Assembly: GCA_017484225.1 (NCBI GenBank)
Contig: JAFUTN010000003.1
Span: 4,851 to 68,850, forward strand
DNA length: 64,000 nucleotides
Reading direction: 5' to 3'
Source: Alphaproteobacteria bacterium
GTDB taxonomy: Bacteria > Pseudomonadota > Alphaproteobacteria > RF32 > CAG-239
Shown piece by piece: positions 3,687 through 64,000 of this stretch (positions are counted from its first letter, which is position 1; each line of letters starts with the position of its first letter). Below the pieces are notes generated by a model that had not been told where the DNA came from, made no database searches, and saw only the letters and a program-made list of their open reading frames with translations. The position numbers and the translations under genes are program-made.

Positions 3687-3871
3687 AGGGGATTAGAAAA
3701 CCCTTAAAATAAACGCAAAACTTGTATATTCAAGTCCTTTTTTTATACCGATAAAACTCGTAAATGGGTGTGATGTCGGTGAATAAGGCTATATGCTCAA
3801 TAAACTGAGCCGTTTTTAACGTTTATTTTACGGTTTTCTAACATCCGCCCACCGATTCAGGTGGCTTTTTT
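3687..3871 (+). promoter_or_regulatory. Structured leader RNA, copy 1 (degenerate variant), ending in an intrinsic terminator
   Basis: Has the family blocks AACCCT, GATGTCGGTGAATAAGG, GAGCC, ACGGTTTTCTAACATCCGCCC. Helices are AAAATAAACG (3706-3715) / CGTTTATTTT (3820-3829) and TTAGAAAACC (3693-3702) / GGTTTTCTAA (3832-3841). Terminator is CCACC-GATTCA-GGTGG-CTTTTTT (3849-3871). Confidence 0.75.
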
Positions 3872-3895
3872 GTAAACTCTTTTGATTTTGAAAGG

Positions 3896-4621
3896 ATGTT
3901 TGAAATGAAACATTTGTTATTTATTTTTTGTTTTATCGGTGCCGGTGCTGCTTTTGCCGAAACATGGAATTGCGGACCGGCAACTGACGGGGTGTATAGT
4001 GACAGCGTTAAATGCACGTATGATGAGGCAACAAAAACGCTTACCATATCAGGCGAAGGAGAAATGGGCGATTATAATGCTATAGATATTAATGGAGAGG
4101 ACGTATCCGATACACCATGGCTAAGAAAAGATATTGTTCACGCCGTTGTGGAAAAAGGTGTAACCACAATCGGAGACAGAGTATTTAAGGCATTATACAA
4201 TTTGGAAGATGTCACCGGATTGGAAAATATAACTTCTGTCGGCATAGCTTCTTTTTCTCAGGCACATAAGCTAGAAAGTGTAGACCTTCCTAATGTGCAA
4301 AATGTAGGCAGCAGCGCTTTTTATAGAACATTGAATTTGCAGTATGCAGGAATACCGGATGGTGTTATATTTGGCTACCGACAAGATCAGCCTGATGTAT
4401 TTGAAGGTTCTATGATTCCTAATTGCAAAACCGGAGACTGCGGAAGCTGCGGAGAAAAATTCGTGCAAGCGGGAGTTGGTTGTGTAAATGATTGCTATGT
4501 CGGATATTATCCGACGAATCAAGGATACTGCAAAATAATTAAACTCCGTTACACCCTGCCGGAAGCGGATGCGGCAACAAGTAATGACAATGAAAACACG
4601 ATTGAGTGGATTTTTGAGTAA
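3896..4621 (+). CDS. Secreted BspA-type LRR / Cys-rich protein, paralog 1 (IEWIFE-tag family)
   Basis: 241 aa. Signal peptide with AFA-ETW cleavage-like site, LRR_5-like repeats (..IGDRVF..L..V.GLENITSVG..AF..), a CGSCGEKFVQAGVGC module and the C-terminal RYTLPEADAATSNDNENTIEWIFE. The true start is probably the second ATG at 3905, because the first ATG overlaps the AAAGGA SD. Confidence 0.85.
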   Translation: MFEMKHLLFIFCFIGAGAAFAETWNCGPATDGVYSDSVKCTYDEATKTLTISGEGEMGDYNAIDINGEDVSDTPWLRKDIVHAVVEKGVTTIGDRVFKALYNLEDVTGLENITSVGIASFSQAHKLESVDLPNVQNVGSSAFYRTLNLQYAGIPDGVIFGYRQDQPDVFEGSMIPNCKTGDCGSCGEKFVQAGVGCVNDCYVGYYPTNQGYCKIIKLRYTLPEADAATSNDNENTIEWIFE

Positions 4622-10391: not shown

Positions 10392-10559
10392 AGGGCGTCA
10401 CAACCCTAAACAGAAACGGTTGCACATATTTGCAACAACAAAATGTGCTGGTATTCGCGTTTGTGCGGATGTCAGCTGAATAAGGTTATGCCGAATAGGT
10501 TGAGCCGTCTGTTTCTGTACGGTTTGTGAACATCCGCCCGTTTTTGAACGGGATTTTTT
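10392..10559 (+). promoter_or_regulatory. Structured leader RNA, copy 2, ending in an intrinsic terminator
   Basis: Sequence AGGGCGTCACAACCCT ... GCGGATGTCAGCTGAATAAGG ... GAGCC ... ACGGTTTGTGAACATCCGCCC. Helices are ACAGAAAC/GTTTCTGT and CAC-AACC/GGTT-T-GTG. Terminator is CCCGTT-TTTG-AACGGG-ATTTTTT. Confidence 0.8.
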
Positions 10560-10585: not shown

Positions 10586-11443
10586 ATGTTTGAAATGAAA
10601 CATTTAATACTTGCGGTAGCATTAACTTTTTTTGCCACACAGACGAATGCCGAAACTGCCGGAATTATCGGAACATGGCCTTGCGGTGCCGATTGCACGG
10701 CAACCCTTGATGATAAGGGAAATTTTCTGGTTGTCGGCAACGGACCAATGAATGACTATGGAACTACTCATGCATCTAATGGAGCGCCATTATTAACTAC
10801 TGCACCTTGGGCAGAACACCTTAGAGAAATTAAAAACATTGAAATAAACGGTGTCTCAAATGTTGGAAGAGATGCTTTTTTTTACAATGAAGGAGGCTCT
10901 CTAAAGCTACAATCCATAAAATTTGATGACACCGTTGAAACCATAAAAGGCGGTGCATTCCATAAAACAGAGTGTTCATATATTGAGCTGCCCGATTCTA
11001 TCAAAAAAATAGAAAGTTACGCCTTTTCAGGGCGCACAGAAATAGTTGTTCCCGATACATTAAATTCTATTACAGGAGACAGGCCTTTTGGTCAATATGC
11101 ATTAACAAATCTAAAAATTGTATGCAGAGGAAATAATTGTTTAAATGTTGAAAATTTATTTAAAAAATATACTCGCTATTTTGATGGTGCATGGATAACG
11201 GAAGATTTAAGCAATAATGTATATCTTGCCGGAGAAAATCAGTGCAATAGTGCAAAATATTATTGGACCGGCGGTTTGTGCAATAATCGCCCGACCGACG
11301 GAAGTGCAATAGAATGTGATGAAGGGTGGTATGCTACCAATAAAGATGTATGCGCAAGAATCAAGCTTCGCTATACCATACCGGAAGCCGACGAGGCAAC
11401 AAGCAACGATAACGAAAATACGATTGAGTGGATTTTTGAATGA
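10586..11443 (+). CDS. Secreted BspA-type LRR / Cys-rich protein, paralog 2
   Basis: 285 aa. Signal peptide, IIGTWPCGADCTATLDD N-terminal module, LRR-like repeats, and a C-terminal module CNSAKYYWTGGLCNNRPTDGSAIECDEGWYATNKDVCARIKLRYTIPEADEATSNDNENTIEWIFE. The likely start is the second ATG at 10595. Confidence 0.85.
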   Translation: MFEMKHLILAVALTFFATQTNAETAGIIGTWPCGADCTATLDDKGNFLVVGNGPMNDYGTTHASNGAPLLTTAPWAEHLREIKNIEINGVSNVGRDAFFYNEGGSLKLQSIKFDDTVETIKGGAFHKTECSYIELPDSIKKIESYAFSGRTEIVVPDTLNSITGDRPFGQYALTNLKIVCRGNNCLNVENLFKKYTRYFDGAWITEDLSNNVYLAGENQCNSAKYYWTGGLCNNRPTDGSAIECDEGWYATNKDVCARIKLRYTIPEADEATSNDNENTIEWIFE

Positions 11444-15395: not shown

Positions 15396-16211
15396 TTACT
15401 CAAAAATCCATTCTATCGTGTTTTCAAAGTCATCAGATGTCGCCGCATCCGCTTCCGGTATAGTATAGCGGAGTTTAATGACTTCGCAATATCCCTTACT
15501 TGTCGGATAATAGCCGTCAAAACAATTACCTACACACCCCGCACCTGCTTGCACGAATTTATCCCCACAACTGCCGCAGTCTCCACCGTTGCCGCATCCG
15601 CTTACTAATGTATTTGAAAAAGCATCTTCAGCTACATTTGCATCTTCAGGTATTCCGATATATTTTAATTTATTTCCGTCAAGTCCTTTGTTACCATTAT
15701 ATCCCTTAAAAGCTCCAATTCCAATCACTTTTACGTTAGGCATATCAACACTTTCTAATACTTTTGAAAATTTAAAAGCACCATCGCCGATATTTTCCAC
15801 CAAAGGCATATAAATGGAAGTCGCCGCATAGGGGTCATAAAAAGCCAAGGTGCCTATTTTTTTTACTCCCGGCATATAAATATTTTCGGCTTTTCTGGCT
15901 CCGTTAAATGCGTTGGCTCCGATTTCATCAACACCGCTTTCTACAACGATATTTTTTATTCTATTCATATTTGCTTGTGTTCCTCCCCATGGTGCGGTTG
16001 ATACCGACAATCCACCATCAACAACACGTCCGAAATCTGCCATTTTACCGGTTCCGGAAACAGTAAAATTACCATCTTCATCCAATGTGCATTTTACGTT
16101 TGCACCATAATTACCATCAGAATCTTTTTCTCCGCAATTCCATGTTTCGGCATAAGTTTTATTCGCAAAACATATAACAATTCCCAACATCAACACAATT
16201 TTTTTCATCAT
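15396..16211 (-). CDS. Secreted BspA-type LRR / Cys-rich protein, paralog 3
   Basis: 271 aa. Signal peptide, ETWNCG, LRR_5-like repeats, CGSCGDKFVQAGAGC module, and C-terminus LRYTIPEADAATSDDFENTIEWIFE. It has its own AAAGGAG SD. Confidence 0.85.
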   Translation of the reverse strand: MMKKIVLMLGIVICFANKTYAETWNCGEKDSDGNYGANVKCTLDEDGNFTVSGTGKMADFGRVVDGGLSVSTAPWGGTQANMNRIKNIVVESGVDEIGANAFNGARKAENIYMPGVKKIGTLAFYDPYAATSIYMPLVENIGDGAFKFSKVLESVDMPNVKVIGIGAFKGYNGNKGLDGNKLKYIGIPEDANVAEDAFSNTLVSGCGNGGDCGSCGDKFVQAGAGCVGNCFDGYYPTSKGYCEVIKLRYTIPEADAATSDDFENTIEWIFE

Positions 16212-22214: not shown

Positions 22215-22318
22215 ATTTATATATCCTTCTTTTTTCCGGTTAAACCTCCGCAGAAACTCGGCCTTTCGGCACCGGAGCGAAAAACTTTTCAGCCTTCCGC
22301 CTGTCTGCGTGTGTAATT

Positions 22319-22403: not shown

Positions 22404-23126
22404 TTATTCAAATATCCACTCAATCCAATTTTCATTGTCATCAGAAGTCAATTCATCTGCTTCTTGTATAGTGTATCTTGTTCTATATACCGGTATTTCT
22501 TTAACAAAATTTCCCATATTCAGCAACGAAGAAACATAAGTTCTACAACTATCCTCAGAACAAGAATTTATTATTTCATCTTTACAGTCCGCAGCATTTT
22601 TTTCCAAACAATAAATATTGGATTCCGGTGATATTGTTGTATTATTAAACAAATTTGCCATATAGTTTACAGCTCCGGATAAAATAATATCTCCTGAAAT
22701 GTTATTACCCTTAAACACTTCCCGATCTATTCCGTTAAGTTGTATTTGACCTTCTTTTCCTACAATATTTGCACCCAATCCCAAAAAAGCATAAGCTCCT
22801 ACGCTAAAATCACCGTCAATAACTACCGTTTTAACGGTTATTTCTCCATTTCCACTCGGAAATGTCTTTTTGCTGGTATCCGTTTGATAGGAAAACGGCA
22901 TAAATGCACCCGCTTTTATTGTTGCATTTTCTCCTGTTGCCTTAACGGTCAAGGTTTCTGTTTCCAAATCATAACTGTAAGTGCAACCTGTGCCGCAATT
23001 ATTTTCAATATCCGGTTTCCATTCATTGCACGAAACGGCATAACCGTCGTAGCATTCAACCGCCTCTGCCGTTTGAAAATTAAACATTACAAAAACAAAA
23101 AATATAAAAAACTTCATAACAAACAT
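22404..23126 (-). CDS. Secreted Cys-rich repeat protein, paralog 4 (most divergent family member)
   Basis: 240 aa. Signal peptide, divergent repeat core, and C-terminus RTRYTIQEADELTSDDNENWIEWIFE. The likely start is the second ATG at 23117. Confidence 0.8.
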   Translation of the reverse strand: MFVMKFFIFFVFVMFNFQTAEAVECYDGYAVSCNEWKPDIENNCGTGCTYSYDLETETLTVKATGENATIKAGAFMPFSYQTDTSKKTFPSGNGEITVKTVVIDGDFSVGAYAFLGLGANIVGKEGQIQLNGIDREVFKGNNISGDIILSGAVNYMANLFNNTTISPESNIYCLEKNAADCKDEIINSCSEDSCRTYVSSLLNMGNFVKEIPVYRTRYTIQEADELTSDDNENWIEWIFE

Positions 23127-23153: not shown

Positions 23154-23314
23154 AAAAAAACCACCTCAAATGGTGGGCGGATGTTAGTAAACCGTATATA
23201 CGCAAACGGCTCAACCTATTCGGTATAACCTTATTCAGCTGACATCCGCTCAAAGCAAATACCAGCAAAAAGCCGTTAAACAACGACTGCGTATATTCAG
23301 GGTTACTACGCCCT
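23154..23314 (-). promoter_or_regulatory. Structured leader RNA, copy 3 of the shared class, ending in an intrinsic terminator
   Basis: RNA sense: AGGGCGTAGTAACCCT ... GCGGATGTCAGCTGAATAAGGTTATACCGAATAGGTTGAGCC ... ACGGTTTACTAACATCCGCCC. Helices are ATATACGCA/TGCGTATAT and AGT-AACC/GGTT-T-ACT. Terminator is CCACC-ATTTGA-GGTGG-TTTTTTT. Confidence 0.8.
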
Positions 23315-41709: not shown

Positions 41710-42414
41710 TCACTCAAAAATCCATTCTATCGTGTTTTCGTTGTCATCACTTGTTGCCGCATCTGCTTCCGGCAATGTGTAACGTGTGCGCGTGCAAAAC
41801 CCGTAATATGAAGTATATCCTTCAGGACACGAAGAAACACAACCAACTCCCGCTTGCACGAATTTTTCTCCGCAACTCCAACATTCTCCGGTTTTATGAC
41901 AATTCGGAATTTTTGAATTTTGAAAAGGTGTTTCTCCCCCACCAAATTCATCTTCCGAAAAAACAACATCTTCCGGAAGTTCAATATATTCCAATAATCT
42001 GGTACCCTTAAATGCTCTGCTTCCGATTTCCTGCACATTAGGCAAAAAAAGATTTTTTAAACTGTAAGTATAGGCAAAAGCAGAGTTTCCGATTTTTGTG
42101 ATATTTTCAAGTCCTGAAACATCACTAAGATTATGTAAATTATGAAAGACTCTGTTTCCAATGCTTGTAACATTACCTTCAACCACGGCGTGCCTTATAT
42201 CTTTTCCTTGCCATGGTGTGTATATATCTTTTACATAATCCCCCATTTCGCCTTCACCGGAAATTGTTAAAGTTTTACTTATCTCATTATACGTGCATTT
42301 AACGCTGTCACTATATACACCATTAGTTGCAGGTCCGCAGTTCCATGTTTCGGCAAAAGCAGCACCGGCACCGATAAAACAAAAAATAAATAACAAATGT
42401 TTCATTTCAAACAT
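41710..42414 (-). CDS. Secreted BspA-type LRR / Cys-rich protein, paralog 5
   Basis: Starts at MFEMKHLL (42414; the second ATG at 42405 is more likely). The first ~45 codons are nearly identical in nucleotide sequence to paralog 1. C-terminus is CGEKFVQAGVGCVSSCPEGYTSYYGFCTRTRYTLPEADAATSDDNENTIEWIFE. The track ORF extension to 42543 runs through the leader RNA. Confidence 0.85.
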   Translation of the reverse strand: MFEMKHLLFIFCFIGAGAAFAETWNCGPATNGVYSDSVKCTYNEISKTLTISGEGEMGDYVKDIYTPWQGKDIRHAVVEGNVTSIGNRVFHNLHNLSDVSGLENITKIGNSAFAYTYSLKNLFLPNVQEIGSRAFKGTRLLEYIELPEDVVFSEDEFGGGETPFQNSKIPNCHKTGECWSCGEKFVQAGVGCVSSCPEGYTSYYGFCTRTRYTLPEADAATSDDNENTIEWIFE

Positions 42415-42438
42415 CCTTTCAAAATCAAAAGAGTTTAC

Positions 42439-42624
42439 AAAAAAGCCACCTGAATCGGTGGGCGGATGTTCAGAAACCATACAAGTATTAAGATGGCTCG
42501 GCGTTTTCGCGCAAAAAGCCTTATTGCACCGACATCCGCTCAAAACAGAATGAACGAATTATCGGTTTAAACCTCAAAAAATCACAAACTTGTGACTAAT
42601 ACTTGTAAAGGGTTCTGACGCCCT
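42439..42624 (-). promoter_or_regulatory. Structured leader RNA, copy 4 of the shared class, ending in an intrinsic terminator
   Basis: RNA sense: AGGGCGTCAGAACCCT ... GCGGATGTCGGTGCAATAAGGC ... CGCCGAGCC ... TGGTTTCTGAACATCCGCCC. Helices are TACAAGTATTA/TAATACTTGTA and CAG-AACC/GGTT-T-CTG. Terminator is CCACC-GATTCA-GGTGG-CTTTTTT. Confidence 0.8.
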
Positions 42625-47370: not shown

Positions 47371-47544
47371 AGGGCGTAGCAACCCTTTGAAAAAATCTGT
47401 CGTTTTATGACGATATGTATGCCGATTTCGCATGTATTGATGTGCGGATGTCGGTGTTATAAGGCTTAAAGCACGAAATCGCCGAGCCGATTTGATTTTT
47501 TCACGGTTTGCTAACATCCGCCCACCATTTAAGGTGGCTTTTTT
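47371..47544 (+). promoter_or_regulatory. Structured leader RNA, copy 5 of the shared class, ending in an intrinsic terminator
   Basis: AGGGCGTAGCAACCCT ... GCGGATGTCGGTGTTATAAGGC ... CGCCGAGCC ... ACGGTTTGCTAACATCCGCCC. Helices are GAAAAAATC (47389-47397) / GATTTTTTC (47494-47502) and AGC-AACC/GGTT-T-GCT. Terminator is CCACC-ATTTAA-GGTGG-CTTTTTT. Confidence 0.8.
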
Positions 47545-47571: not shown

Positions 47572-48387
47572 ATGTTTGTAATGAAAAAAGTTAGCTTAAT
47601 TTGCTTTTTTATTCTTTTATCACTAAATGCGAAAGCAAAAATTATCGGCACATGGCCATGCGGAGATGATTGCACGGCAACTCTTGATGACAGCGGGCAT
47701 TTCAAGGTTACCGGAACCGGTGCTACACTGACCTATGGTCATTATTCGCAACCATGGAGCGATAAACTTTCACAGATAACTTCGGTGGAAATAGAAGGTT
47801 TAACGACTATAAACACCAATCTGACTTATTTTTCTCCGATTACGGAATTGAAATTAAGTGATTCCGTTAAGAATATTCTCGGTGGATTTGAAGGTAATCA
47901 CTTGCAAAAGCTGGAACTTCCCGACTCTGTGGAAAGAATTTCAAATTATGCCTTGGCAAGCTCTTCTCTTGTTGAAATTATTGTTCCGGATTCTATTTTA
48001 TCGTTTGGTGGACCGAATAGTTTGGGAGGGCTTGGGCAAATACAAGATAAAAACATCATTTGTCGCGGAGATAATTGCGATAAAGTATCAGATTTGCTCA
48101 AAAATTACATAATCACATACAAAATTAACGGAGAATATCATACAGCCGATGTCAGCGACAGGATGTCATTAGCCGGGGAAAATCAGTGCAACAGTGCAAA
48201 ATATTATTGGACCGGCGGTTTGTGTAATAATCGCCCGACCGACGGAAGTGCAATAGAATGTGACGAAGGGTGGTATGCTACCAATAAAGATGTGTGTGCC
48301 AGAATTAAAATACGTTACACCATTCCGGAAGCAGATGAATTAACCTCAAATGACAACGAAAATATGATTGAGTGGATTTTTGAGTAA
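47572..48387 (+). CDS. Secreted LRR / Cys-rich protein, paralog 6
   Basis: 271 aa. Has the IIGTWPCGDDCTATLDD N-terminal module, like paralog 2. Its C-terminal ~60 aa are almost identical to paralog 2 and it ends IRYTIPEADELTSNDNENMIEWIFE. The likely start is 47581. Confidence 0.85.
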   Translation: MFVMKKVSLICFFILLSLNAKAKIIGTWPCGDDCTATLDDSGHFKVTGTGATLTYGHYSQPWSDKLSQITSVEIEGLTTINTNLTYFSPITELKLSDSVKNILGGFEGNHLQKLELPDSVERISNYALASSSLVEIIVPDSILSFGGPNSLGGLGQIQDKNIICRGDNCDKVSDLLKNYIITYKINGEYHTADVSDRMSLAGENQCNSAKYYWTGGLCNNRPTDGSAIECDEGWYATNKDVCARIKIRYTIPEADELTSNDNENMIEWIFE

Positions 48388-48400
48388 AAAAATATCCGCA

Positions 48401-48554
48401 GTCATCTTGAACCCCGAGCGATAGCGAGTGGGTGTAAAGATCTCACGTTTCAGGAACGGAGTTTATTGTTACGCACTGCATAACAACAAACACTTTCTTG
48501 CTTTAAAAAGATCTTTACGGGGATTTCGCTTATCGCTCAACCCCTCAAGATGAC
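48401..48554. repeat. MITE-like long imperfect inverted repeat between convergent paralogs 6 and 7
   Basis: The left arm (48401-48443) and right arm (48509-48554) share the blocks GTCATCTTGA, GAGCGATA, GCGA and TAAAGATCT in inverted orientation around a ~65-bp core. Each arm also folds on itself (ACCC..GGGT / GGGG..CCCC). Confidence 0.5.
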
Positions 48555-48576
48555 AGTGAAATATTAAATTGCGGAG

Positions 48577-48608
48577 ATTATCGGTTATTGCCTTGCAATC
48601 CCGATAAT
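48577..48608 (-). terminator. Conserved 3' hairpin downstream of LRR paralog 7
   Basis: ATTATCGG-TT-ATTGC-CTT-GCAAT-C-CCGATAAT. It is the same element as 15331-15362. Confidence 0.4.
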
Positions 48609-48614
48609 GACTCT

Positions 48615-49358
48615 TTATTCAAAAATCCATTCAATCATATTTTCGTTATCATTACTTGTCGCCGCATCAGCTTCCGGTAAGGTATAGCGTTTGCGCGTGC
48701 AAAACCCATAATATGAAGTATATCCTGTATAACAACTACTTACACACCCAACTCCCGCTTGCACAAATTTTTCTCCGCAACTTCCGCATTCTCCGGTTTT
48801 TCGGCAGTTTGATAATTTTGAACCACCAAAAGTCTCTCTATTACTGGCTGCAACCGTATCCGGACCATAGATAACGCCATCCGGAATACCGACATATTCC
48901 AGGCTACTTGTTCCATAAAAAGCGATACCACCTATTTCCTGCACATTAGGTAAATCTATGCTTATCAAAGAAGCGGCTCCATAAAAGGCAGTATCTCCGA
49001 CAGAAACTATATTTTCTGTGCCTTCAATATCTTGCAAATTACGAGCATTCTTAAAAGTTCTGGCTCCGATACTGGTTACATTGCCTTCCACAACTGCATG
49101 AACGATATCTTTACCAAACCATGGGGCAGTAGATCCGTCTTTTCCATTCACACTAGCATAAGGATAATCACCCATTTCTCCCTCGCCGGAAATTGTTAAA
49201 GTTTTTGTTGCCTCATCATAGGTGCATTTCACGCTGTCACTGTATACCCCGTCGGTTGCCGGCCCGCAGTTCCATGTTTCGGCTCTTGCTTTATTTACCA
49301 AAACAAAAATTAAAGAAAATATAAGTCCTAAAAATCCAAAACGTTTCATTTCAAACAT
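48615..49358 (-). CDS. Secreted BspA-type LRR / Cys-rich protein, paralog 7
   Basis: 247 aa. ETWNCGPATDGVYSDSVKCTYDEATKTLTISGEGEMGDY is identical to paralog 1. Has LRR_5-like repeats and the C-terminus GYTSYYGFCTRKRYTLPEADAATSNDNENMIEWIFE. The likely start is 49349. Confidence 0.85.
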   Translation of the reverse strand: MFEMKRFGFLGLIFSLIFVLVNKARAETWNCGPATDGVYSDSVKCTYDEATKTLTISGEGEMGDYPYASVNGKDGSTAPWFGKDIVHAVVEGNVTSIGARTFKNARNLQDIEGTENIVSVGDTAFYGAASLISIDLPNVQEIGGIAFYGTSSLEYVGIPDGVIYGPDTVAASNRETFGGSKLSNCRKTGECGSCGEKFVQAGVGCVSSCYTGYTSYYGFCTRKRYTLPEADAATSNDNENMIEWIFE

Positions 49359-49385: not shown

Positions 49386-49572
49386 AAAAAAACCCGCTTC
49401 AAAAAGACGGGCGGATGTTAGCAAACCGTATTCTATCAACCGGCTCGGCGTTTTCGCGCTTTTTATAAGAGCCTTATTACACCGACATCCGCTCCACAAA
49501 AAAGAACGAAGTCGGTAAACACCAACAAATCGCAATAAATGCGACCGATAGAATAAAGGGTTGCTACGCCCT
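49386..49572 (-). promoter_or_regulatory. Structured leader RNA, copy 6 of the shared class, ending in an intrinsic terminator
   Basis: RNA sense: AGGGCGTAGCAACCCT ... GCGGATGTCGGTGTAATAAGGC ... CGCCGAGCC ... ACGGTTTGCTAACATCCGCCC. Helices are ATTCTATC/GATAGAAT and AGC-AACC/GGTT-T-GCT. Terminator is CCCGTCTT..GAAGCGGG-TTTTTTT. Confidence 0.8.
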
Positions 49573-63115: not shown

Positions 63116-63291
63116 AGGGCGTGACAACCCTTTGTAAAACTCTGTCGCAATACTTTGCGAACAAATTACCGATAGTTCGTTCTTGTAATGAGCGGATGTC
63201 GGTGTTATAAGGCTTTAGCACGAAATCGCCGAGCCGTTTTGAGTTTTACACGGTTTGTCAACATCCGCCCACCAATTCAGGTGGCTTTTTT
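63116..63291 (+). promoter_or_regulatory. Structured leader RNA, copy 7 of the shared class, ending in an intrinsic terminator
   Basis: AGGGCGTGACAACCCT ... GCGGATGTCGGTGTTATAAGGC ... CGCCGAGCC ... ACGGTTTGTCAACATCCGCCC. Helices are GTAAAACTC/GAGTTTTAC and GAC-AACC/GGTT-T-GTC. Terminator is CCACC-AATTCA-GGTGG-CTTTTTT. Confidence 0.8.
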
Positions 63292-63314: not shown

Positions 63315-64000
63315 ATGTTTGATATGAAATATTTAGCATTTACTTTTTGTTTTATCGGTGCAGGTGTTGCCTTTGCCGAAACATGGAATTGCGGACCGGC
63401 AACCGACGGGGTATACAGCGACAGTGTTAAATGCACGTATGATGAGGAAAGTAAGACTTTAACCATTTCCGGCGAAGGACCAATGGGGAATTATGCTTCA
63501 ATAAATAATAACTCCACGGCTCCGTGGTATGGCAAAGATATTGTTCATGCCGTTATAGAAGGAAATGTAACAAGTATCGGAGACAGGGTATTTAAGCACG
63601 CTGAGAATTTAACAGATATTGTCGGGTTAGAAAATATAACACACCTTGGTTATGCCTCATTCAGTGGAGCCTCTTCACTGGTTAGTATTGATTTACCTAA
63701 TGTGCAGGAAATAGGCGGCGTTGCTTTTCATTATACATCAAGTCTTGAGTATGCCGGTATTCCGGATGATGTTACTTATGGTTCGGACCCTTTATCACGC
63801 GATAATTTTGAGGGTTCAAAATTATCAAATTGCCGAAAAACCGGAGAATGCGGCAGCTGCGGAGATAAATTTGTGCAAGCGGGAGTTGGGTGTGTTTCTT
63901 CGTGTCCTGAAGGATATACTTCATATTATGGGTTTTGCACGCGCACACGTTACACTCTGCCGGAAGCCGACGAGGCAACAAGTAATGATAACGAAAACAC
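63315..64000 (+). CDS. Secreted BspA-type LRR / Cys-rich protein, paralog 8 (3' end runs off the window)
   Basis: Not in the ORF track because no stop is reached. My own translation gives M(FDM)KYLAFTFCFIGAGVAFAETWNCGPATDGVYSDSVKCTYDEESKTLTISGEGPMGNY ... CGDKFVQAGVGCVSSCPEGYTSYYGFCTRTRYTLPEADEATSNDNEN. The likely start is 63324. Confidence 0.85.
   Translation, partial: MFDMKYLAFTFCFIGAGVAFAETWNCGPATDGVYSDSVKCTYDEESKTLTISGEGPMGNYASINNNSTAPWYGKDIVHAVIEGNVTSIGDRVFKHAENLTDIVGLENITHLGYASFSGASSLVSIDLPNVQEIGGVAFHYTSSLEYAGIPDDVTYGSDPLSRDNFEGSKLSNCRKTGECGSCGDKFVQAGVGCVSSCPEGYTSYYGFCTRTRYTLPEADEATSNDNEN

Follow-up and report, generated by a model that had tools for sequence, protein, structure and literature searches.

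Eight paralogous genes, here called p1 to p8, lie in a 64,000-nt stretch of DNA (the window) from an uncultured ruminant-gut alphaproteobacterium. They belong to a dispersed family of about 90 intact copies, which probably evolves by homologous segmental gene conversion between its members, a reading we hold with considerable confidence. The genes share near-identical tracts with sharp edges, synonymous divergence differs from module to module, the phylogenies of gene parts conflict, and between strains patches have been replaced, in some cases with exact donors. Judged from the translations, the products would be secreted BspA-type leucine-rich-repeat (LRR) or Cys-rich proteins, and promoter-like sites predict that each gene has a promoter of its own. 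The genome is reduced: the assembly comprises 1.48 Mb in 57 contigs with 39% GC and an estimated completeness of 95.7%.

The first-pass annotation of this DNA had taken the genes for mosaics generated by segmental conversion, as in families for antigenic or adhesin variation. The first part of this proposal stands, borne out by shared tracts, approximately unbiased (AU) tests, a triplet test and the comparison of strains. A programmed, high-frequency switch for antigenic variation finds no support: the genes are intact and, by prediction, individually promoted, and the exchanges proceed on an evolutionary time scale.

The paralogs and their modules

The paralogs were found by BLASTP of the p2 and p6 proteins against all open reading frames (ORFs) of the window, which recovered the eight genes of Table 1. 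The proteins are small, 230-285 aa, and possess Cys-rich N- and C-modules which are family-specific. All eight end in a common tail, RYT.PEAD..TS.D.EN.IEWIFE. Every gene has a promoter-like site and a leader, and each carries a ribosome-binding site (RBS) and encodes a signal peptide; the leader is of one type in seven of them, and p3 has its own. Seven proteins (p1, p2, p3, p5, p6, p7 and p8) pass the gathering threshold of Pfam LRR_5 (PF13306; 27.7 bits) with 30.8-51.2 bits. No LRR_5 match was found for p4 in this Pfam search, despite its family ends.

The modules are distributed as first described. The translations confirm that the N-module ETWNCGPAT.GVYSDSVKCTY is common to p1, p5, p7 and p8, that GYYPT..GYC..IKLRYT is common to p1 and p3, and that SSC..GYTSYYGFCTR.RYT is common to p5, p7 and p8. 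Leaders follow a different order. Subtype 1, TCAGCTGAATAAGGTTAT.CCGAATAGGTTGAGCC, precedes p2 and p4 only; subtype 2, TCGGTG..ATAAGGC..CGAAA.CGCCGAGCC, precedes p5, p6, p7 and p8. The leader of p3 is altogether different from the other leaders of the window. Leader subtype does not track protein subtype, as had been claimed: p2 and p4 share a leader in front of unrelated cores, whereas p2 and p6, the closest pair of proteins, differ in their leaders.

A near-identical tract in p2 and p6

The p2 and p6 proteins are only loosely alike outside of one tract, with 51% identity overall. Within the tract of 122 nt, which has sharp boundaries on both sides, five nucleotides differ (offsets 14, 47, 86, 116 and 119). 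Each of these differences is synonymous and falls on a third codon position, in agreement with the initial description; the longest exact run inside the block is 38 nt. A codon-aware sliding-window comparison of p2 and p6 resolves three regions. Over most of the gene nucleotide identity is about 0.4-0.6 and protein identity is low. At p2 codons 215-245 nucleotide identity rises to 0.96-0.98 and protein identity to 100%. In the tail directly downstream nucleotide identity is 0.64-0.80 with a protein identity of 87-93%.

Codon usage was compared at identical residues with degenerate codons. The same codon is used at 32 of 37 such residues in the block, at 13 of 29 in the adjoining tail (Fisher P against the block 4.6e-4) and at 35 of 75 in the N/LRR part (P = 3.9e-5). 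Equal synonymous divergence across modules, as an explanation by uniform purifying selection would have it, is thus not what is found. The tail is an internal control: in this family protein conservation alone does not hold codons alike. Since the tail is as conserved in protein sequence as the block and has lost its synonymous identity, selection cannot account for the block. A second comparison leads to the same point. Among 11 genes with an NRPTDG-type C-module the distances in block and tail are uncorrelated (Spearman 0.02), though the two adjoin; of all pairs p2 and p6 are closest in the block (6/123) and farthest apart in the tail (20/81).

That there was no recombination whatever, and that uniform purifying selection or a nucleotide-level constraint preserved the conserved modules of old paralogs, therefore has next to no probability. 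It is true that high-identity tracts concentrate in the protein-conserved N-module, C-module and tail. Yet the codon counts and the uncorrelated distances contradict it, and so do the conflicting trees of gene partitions and the divergence of orthologous tails between strains with closely similar flanks, both reported below. The form of the exchange can be specified as well. Diverged sequence is present on both sides of the tract; therefore information was copied, i.e., converted, as one reciprocal crossover would not suffice.

Tracts and conflicting phylogenies across the genome

In the genome 92 ORFs terminate in an ...IEWIFE-type tail, 90 of them full-length. Two further copies, C7:22662-23378 and C44:12120-12800, each contain one in-frame stop (TAG and TAA) and are the sole evident pseudogenes among about 92 family copies. 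Most of the approximately 90 full-length ORFs have a start resembling a signal peptide. The family occupies about 6-7% of the 1.5 Mb genome. At least ten contigs (C10, C11, C16, C33, C39, C41, C50, C52, C54 and C57) start or stop in family genes or a few hundred bases from one, and for this reason the real copy number probably exceeds 90. The family is a main cause of assembly breaks in this genome.

The 90 loci, each extended by 330 nt on the upstream and 150 nt on the downstream side of the coding sequence (CDS), were compared by stringent all-versus-all BLASTN. Of 4,005 pairs of loci, 527 share one or more tracts that are ≥50 nt long and ≥93% identical. The largest shared fraction of any pair is 53%; recent whole-gene duplicates and identical gene pairs are absent. 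According to position the tracts fall into tail (192), 3' flank (166), leader (158), N/LRR (34), C-module (31) and signal peptide (16). A second example is in the window itself, where the 5' ends of p1 and p5 are exact reverse complements over 130 of 130 nt with an abrupt left edge at AACATCCGCCC. Pairs on the same contig are about threefold enriched for tracts of ≥100 nt at ≥95% identity (5.8% versus 1.9%, Fisher P = 0.006), a proximity effect as expected for intragenomic ectopic recombination.

Nearest neighbors shift from module to module. The gene C34_16703m is 92% identical to p3 across 775 nt, yet the signal peptides differ: its signal peptide is 99% identical to that of C33_25090m, and all other modules are 91-96% identical to p3. 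Formal tests were run on a subgroup of 22 members with an ETWNCG N-module which can be aligned over their full length. The alignment was divided into three partitions, one with the signal peptide and the N-module, one with the LRR, and one with the C-module and the tail, and a maximum-likelihood tree was calculated for each. In every combination the data of one partition rejected the trees of the others (delta lnL 104-344), with AU P of at most 1.6e-5 and as low as <1e-100. The pairwise homoplasy index (PHI) with all informative sites gave P = 0.001. Tract edges concentrate at the N-module and at the C-module plus tail, i.e., at conserved stretches able to serve as homology. The breakpoints predicted in the first-pass annotation are significant by the AU test and, as presented below, by a triplet test and a GENECONV-like test.

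Replacement of patches between strains

Syntenic loci with the same flanking housekeeping genes were taken from other assemblies by exact-protein look-up. The strain of the window is termed A, and locus L001 matches the window without a difference. Loci L002, L003, L005, L006, L023 and L024 stand for strain B, and scaffold_130 of ERZ1667813 (L004, L007, L021 and L022) stands for strain C. Relative to the window, divergence amounts to about 1-2% in flanking non-family DNA, 1.4% in the leader and 2.4% in the signal peptide. It increases to 8.6% in N+LRR, 7.3% in the C-module, 11.6% in the tail and 21% in the 3' flank, indels counted. Family loci thus vary about 4-8-fold above their surroundings in two strain pairs.

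In the replaced parts dS is 0.3-1.4 with dN/dS <1, whereas in the unreplaced N+LRR of p2 dS is about 0.01. High dS together with dN/dS <1 means that already-diverged DNA was imported; it does not reflect positive selection on point mutations. An example is p7. Between strains its N+LRR has a dS of 0.47-1.03, and its leader, signal peptide and 3' flank are about 99% identical.

Evidence for the conversion initially proposed is most direct here, with patches replaced at orthologous loci and some exact paralogous donors. The C-module of p7 in strain C (p7_C) has no mismatch to p5, 7 kb apart, as against 9-12 of 45 to its own ortholog. In the triplet test CDS nt 585-713 of p7_C contain 20 informative sites, 19 of which match p5_C; outside this segment the match is 21 of 325 (Fisher P = 3e-19; 2e-14 after Bonferroni correction). 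An N-module patch of p5 in strain B has no mismatch to p1 and 5-6 to its ortholog. The tail of p2 in strain C is closest to that of C50_199p (1 mismatch versus 11-14). Overall, 101 of 132 divergent 45-nt windows resemble some non-orthologous paralog in this genome more closely than they do the ortholog.

The tails show the same tendency. Across strains with flanks only 1-2% apart, orthologous tails have 2-16 differences in 78 nt, and for 7 of 14 tails the nearest one is not the ortholog. The tails of p5_C and p8_C have four differences between them, and seven and twelve, respectively, to their own orthologs. This is a signature of concerted evolution within a strain. The events seen in p7_C and in the strain tails are younger than the split of A, B and C.

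At p8 the C-module is unlike between strains A and C. As a separate observation, the non-family flank of p8 (L022 versus C47:66174-70872) differs by 7.6% between these strains, against about 1-2% at other loci, which hints at another segment, replaced or rearranged, on the downstream side of p8.

Other sources of the mosaics

Several points weigh against conversion between paralogs as the main process. The p2/p6 tract is carried by all three strains A, B and C and has 4-5% synonymous change; consequently it is older than the strain split and not very recent. PHI restricted to third positions was not significant in the 22-member subgroup (P = 0.69); we judge this variant uninformative and attribute the result to synonymous sites which are saturated between most paralogs. 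The GENECONV-like permutation test with polymorphic third positions yielded 30 of 231 pairs at P < 0.01, where 2.3 are expected, and six pairs above the 95th percentile of the permuted global maximum; with C-module and tail regionally conserved, such counts can come out too high. For the LRR core of p7, as replaced in strains B and C, a donor search produced no convincing candidate among the 90 genomic copies, and many other replaced windows are likewise without a good donor among these copies. Part of the variation may therefore stem from other strains, or from donors which were lost or are unassembled. All genomes compared are short-read metagenome assemblies, and at least ten contigs end inside family genes.

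The missing donors bear on the view that the mosaics arose mainly by allelic homologous recombination with DNA of other strains or species via the conserved flanks. For the LRR core of p7, with its high dS between strains, most 60-nt windows have no donor better than 31-45 of 60 among the 90 copies, and the edges of replacements are at the strain-conserved leader plus signal peptide and at the 3' flank. Nevertheless, we consider such an origin improbable as the main one. Exact or near-exact donors are present in the same genome or strain (p5 into p7_C, p1-type sequence in p5_B, the tails of p5_C and p8_C), near-identical tracts connect paralogs inside this one genome, and they are enriched between genes of the same contig. 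Further, the tail DNA and p7-type protein are almost unmatched in 12 other species of the genus, so that any outside donors would have to come from the same species. Its other strains probably do contribute by exchange.

The short reads bear on a second possibility, namely that assemblers jumped between paralogs or co-existing strains and in this way generated chimeric genes. Contig ends inside family genes would fit. So would the data from Logan: in contigs from gut metagenomes of goat, sheep and other sources, two segments, the leader's 3' end and the tail plus 3' flank, reach 20-80-fold the depth of unique flanks, and it is in these multi-copy segments that unitigs break. The consequence of such breaks is a fragmented assembly; patches shorter than a read are not created thereby. 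The longest exact run of p2 and p6, 38 nt, is shorter than the k-mers usual for final assembly, and both genes are located deep inside the 90-kb contig with unique flanks. Identical mosaic alleles were also recovered from independent samples and assemblies. The p2 allele of the window is present at 100% identity over 6.8 kb in the independent assembly L001, the alleles of strain B are concordant between two samples (L005 and L006), and two separate assembly records, L025 and L026, carry the mosaic p7 of strain C with the same CDS. Independence was judged by record names, e.g., scaffold_130 and k87_9300816. An assembly artefact is therefore an extremely improbable explanation.

Leaders, gene starts and 3' flanks

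The coordinates of genes, leaders and exchanged segments are compiled in Table 1.

Table 1. Family genes, leaders and exchanged segments in the window (C47:4851-68850 of the genome assembly; C47 is a 90-kb contig). Positions are those of the window unless a contig is given.
Feature	ORF or span	CDS	Strand	Content
p1	3896-4621	likely 3905..4621	+	signal peptide, ETWNCGPAT N-module, BspA-type LRR, Cys-module, tail; LRR_5 E = 5.5e-10
p1 C-terminal part				Cys-module CGSCGEKFVQAG...GYYPTNQGYC, then tail RYTLPEADAATSNDNENTIEWIFE
p2	10586-11443	10595..11443	+	IIGTWPCG N-module, LRR_5, NRPTDG-type Cys-module, tail
p3	15396-16211	15396..16208	-	ETWNCGEKDS N-module, GYYPTSKGYC C-module
p4	22404-23126	22404..23117	-	unrelated core, no Pfam LRR match, family tail, p2-like leader subtype
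p5	41710-42414	41710..42405	-	ETWNCGPAT N-module, SSCPEGYTSYYGFC C-module
p6	47572-48387	47581..48387	+	IIGTWPCG N-module, NRPTDG-type C-module
p7	48615-49358	48615..49349	-	interior replaced between strains
p8	from 63315	63324..64000, past window end	+	complete at C47:68174-68872
p2 tract shared with p6	11234..11355		+	122 nt, sharp boundaries on both sides
p6 tract shared with p2	48178..48299		+	122 nt
p5 C-module stretch	41783..41868		-	86 nt, letter-for-letter inside p7 of strain C; donor or sister copy of donor
p7 segment	48637..48765		-	CDS nt 585-713, p5-type in strain C
Leader subtype 1 core	10472-10506		+	p2
Leader subtype 1 core	23208-23242		-	p4
Leader subtype 2 core	42495-42532		-	p5
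Leader subtype 2 core	47451-47488		+	p6
Leader subtype 2 core	49442-49485		-	p7
Leader subtype 2 core	63199-63235		+	p8
Leader subtype 2 variant	3776-3811			p1
130-nt stretch	3840..3969		+	5' end of p1: leader 3' end, terminator, RBS, signal peptide
Partner of 130-nt stretch	42341..42470		-	5' end of p5
Palindromic repeat element	48388..48614			about 160-230 nt, between convergent p6 and p7; multi-copy 3' flank block

At gathering thresholds no Rfam entry matches the family leaders. The sole Rfam match of the window at these thresholds is the rpsB sRNA/leader RF01815 at 22222-22313 on the minus strand (41.9 bits), just downstream of p4.

The ORFs of the family begin with ATGTTTGA(A/T)ATGAAA, e.g., at 3896-3907, 10586-10597 and 47572-47583. 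A Shine-Dalgarno-like AAAGGATG overlaps the first ATG, and public gene calls mostly use the second one (MKH.../MKK...). The second ATG is probably the true start. Short-unit tandem arrays, i.e., phase-variation repeats, were sought at the 5' ends of the family, including the signal-peptide alignment, and none were found.

The 3' flank between p6 and p7 consists of a palindromic element with a predicted hairpin (minimum free energy -78.5 kcal/mol). It is represented by 57 BLAST pieces in the genome and is located at most 300 nt from the stop codon in 32 of the 90 family genes. It is present or absent depending on strain; the 3' flank of p6 has 143 differences in 217 positions against strain B. 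The element looks like a miniature inverted-repeat transposable element (MITE) or a repetitive extragenic palindrome (REP), and possible roles for it are those of a terminator or of homology on the downstream side.

Distribution of the family

The tail DNA was searched in 12 other species of the genus (G001-G012) with essentially no match, and the p7 protein returned only three weak matches there, all in one genome; in both searches a first-look filter may limit sensitivity. One relative was found in GCA_017528285.1. The samples are gut metagenomes, from ruminants and from other hosts. Subject to the sensitivity of this first filter, the expansion to about 90 copies looks confined to one species. 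In the literature we found no description of this family, nor of gene conversion in bacterial BspA-type LRR families.

A proposed mechanism and the question of switching

We propose that segmental conversion between family copies is homologous and presumably RecA-dependent; RecA and a MutS1-type protein are encoded in the genome. Conserved stretches would act as anchors of homology: at the 5' side the end of the leader together with RBS and signal peptide, then the N-module and the Cys-rich module, and at the 3' side the invariant tail and the flank behind it. Short patches of roughly 50-450 nt would pass non-reciprocally from paralog to paralog, although the direction assigned to each single event is likewise presumptive. 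Two effects would ensue. Conserved modules would be homogenised, and signal peptides, N-modules, LRR cores, C-modules and tails would be re-assorted into new combinations. The physiological pay-off may well be a diverse repertoire of cell-surface or secreted binding proteins in the ruminant gut.

A diversity-generating retroelement was considered and rejected: no reverse transcriptase was found, as an RVT_1 match is absent from the 95.7%-complete genome.

Programmed antigenic variation, that is dedicated high-frequency switching of the vlsE, tprK, pilE or msp2 kind, would leave the same molecular signature, short-patch segmental conversion of surface-protein genes with conserved flanking homology (PMC4534519). 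Even so we regard it as very improbable. It is at variance with the organization of the family, in which a single expression site with silent cassettes is not evident: in the window each of the eight copies comes with promoter-like site, leader, RBS and signal peptide, the roughly 90 genomic ORFs are full-length, and only two copies have in-frame stops. Alleles are unchanged across samples, as the pairs of records cited above demonstrate. Finally, the genome is without a reverse transcriptase and the 5' ends of the family are without phase-variation repeats.

A bolder variant of cassette exchange appears rather unlikely to us. According to it every locus is an expression site: about 90 genes would be independently switchable, each behind its own structured leader RNA, and portable homology arms would allow any LRR or Cys head to enter any locus, with conversion being frequent within the host-associated population. 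The arms would be the 3' end of the leader plus the signal peptide upstream, and the invariant tail plus the palindromic 3' element downstream. Conversion and a leader switch together would then bring about combinatorial surface variation, unlike systems which combine one expression site with many silent cassettes. Its origin would appear to lie in just one species of the genus.

Returning to conversion between intact, dispersed copies, the family is a clean and quantified case of concerted evolution plus segmental conversion in a very large family of bacterial surface proteins. Its tail is invariant as protein but not as DNA, and this property separates recombination from selection. An undescribed leader RNA and an equally undescribed C-terminal tag are joined on the same genes; these conserved ends are kept alike, at least partly, by conversion and are likely homology anchors. 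For users of metagenome-assembled genomes of this group there is a warning: the loci are 4-8 times more strain-variable than their surroundings and short-read assemblies break there.

Comparison with known systems

With other BspA-type LRR proteins the family shares the repeat itself, as 7 of 8 window proteins pass LRR_5. It differs in its small size, in the family-specific Cys-rich modules, in the ...IEWIFE tail, and in p4, which has the family ends and no detectable LRR.

Gene conversion of LRR genes is known from eukaryotes, namely from clusters of plant nucleotide-binding LRR genes such as RPP8 (PMC6771003) and from mammalian TLR1/TLR6 (PMC2077338). There, as here, paralogs exchange segments, and conserved parts are homogenised while ligand-binding repeats stay diverse. 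The present family differs in that it is bacterial, dispersed instead of tandem, of the BspA/LRR_5 subtype and free of meiosis.

Conversion systems with an expression site and silent cassettes comprise Borrelia vlsE, vmp of relapsing-fever Borrelia, Treponema tprK and Anaplasma msp2 (PMC4534519). Short non-reciprocal patches between members and mosaic products are common to these systems and to our family. In addition, the conserved 5' and 3' blocks around the variable part resemble the UHS and DHS, the upstream and downstream homology sequences, of vmp (PMC4534519). The differences are considerable. Neither a single expression site nor an array of promoterless cassettes exists, as essentially every copy is complete. 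Alleles are stable across samples, and the host is of a gut commensal type, not a pathogen of blood or tissue.

The closest functional analogue is opa of Neisseria, which the family resembles more than it does the single-expression-site systems with their silent cassettes, although the proteins are unrelated and the likeness is one of analogy. Neisseria has 9-12 complete, dispersed opa expression loci which exchange semivariable (SV) and hypervariable (HV1 and HV2) segments (PMC13183285, PMC2265424). Diversity at opa loci is 74-fold above the genome background, and almost all gonococci hold at least one identical pair of opa genes (PMC13183285). Both families consist of many complete loci scattered around the chromosome with mosaic variable regions between conserved ends, individual expression being a prediction in our case. 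Both are diverse above background, 74-fold in opa and about 4-8-fold here (two strain pairs), and in both the repertoire differs among closely related strains. On the other hand, about 90 loci compare with about 11 in opa. The proteins are LRR_5/Cys-rich and secreted with a C-terminal tag, whereas Opa proteins are eight-stranded beta-barrels. Pentameric coding repeats for phase variation are replaced by a structured, terminator-containing leader, and this genome is without identical pairs of family genes. The process as such is a well-known one of bacterial surface-protein diversification by ordinary segmental conversion, presumably of the RecA type. It is the scale which is unusual.

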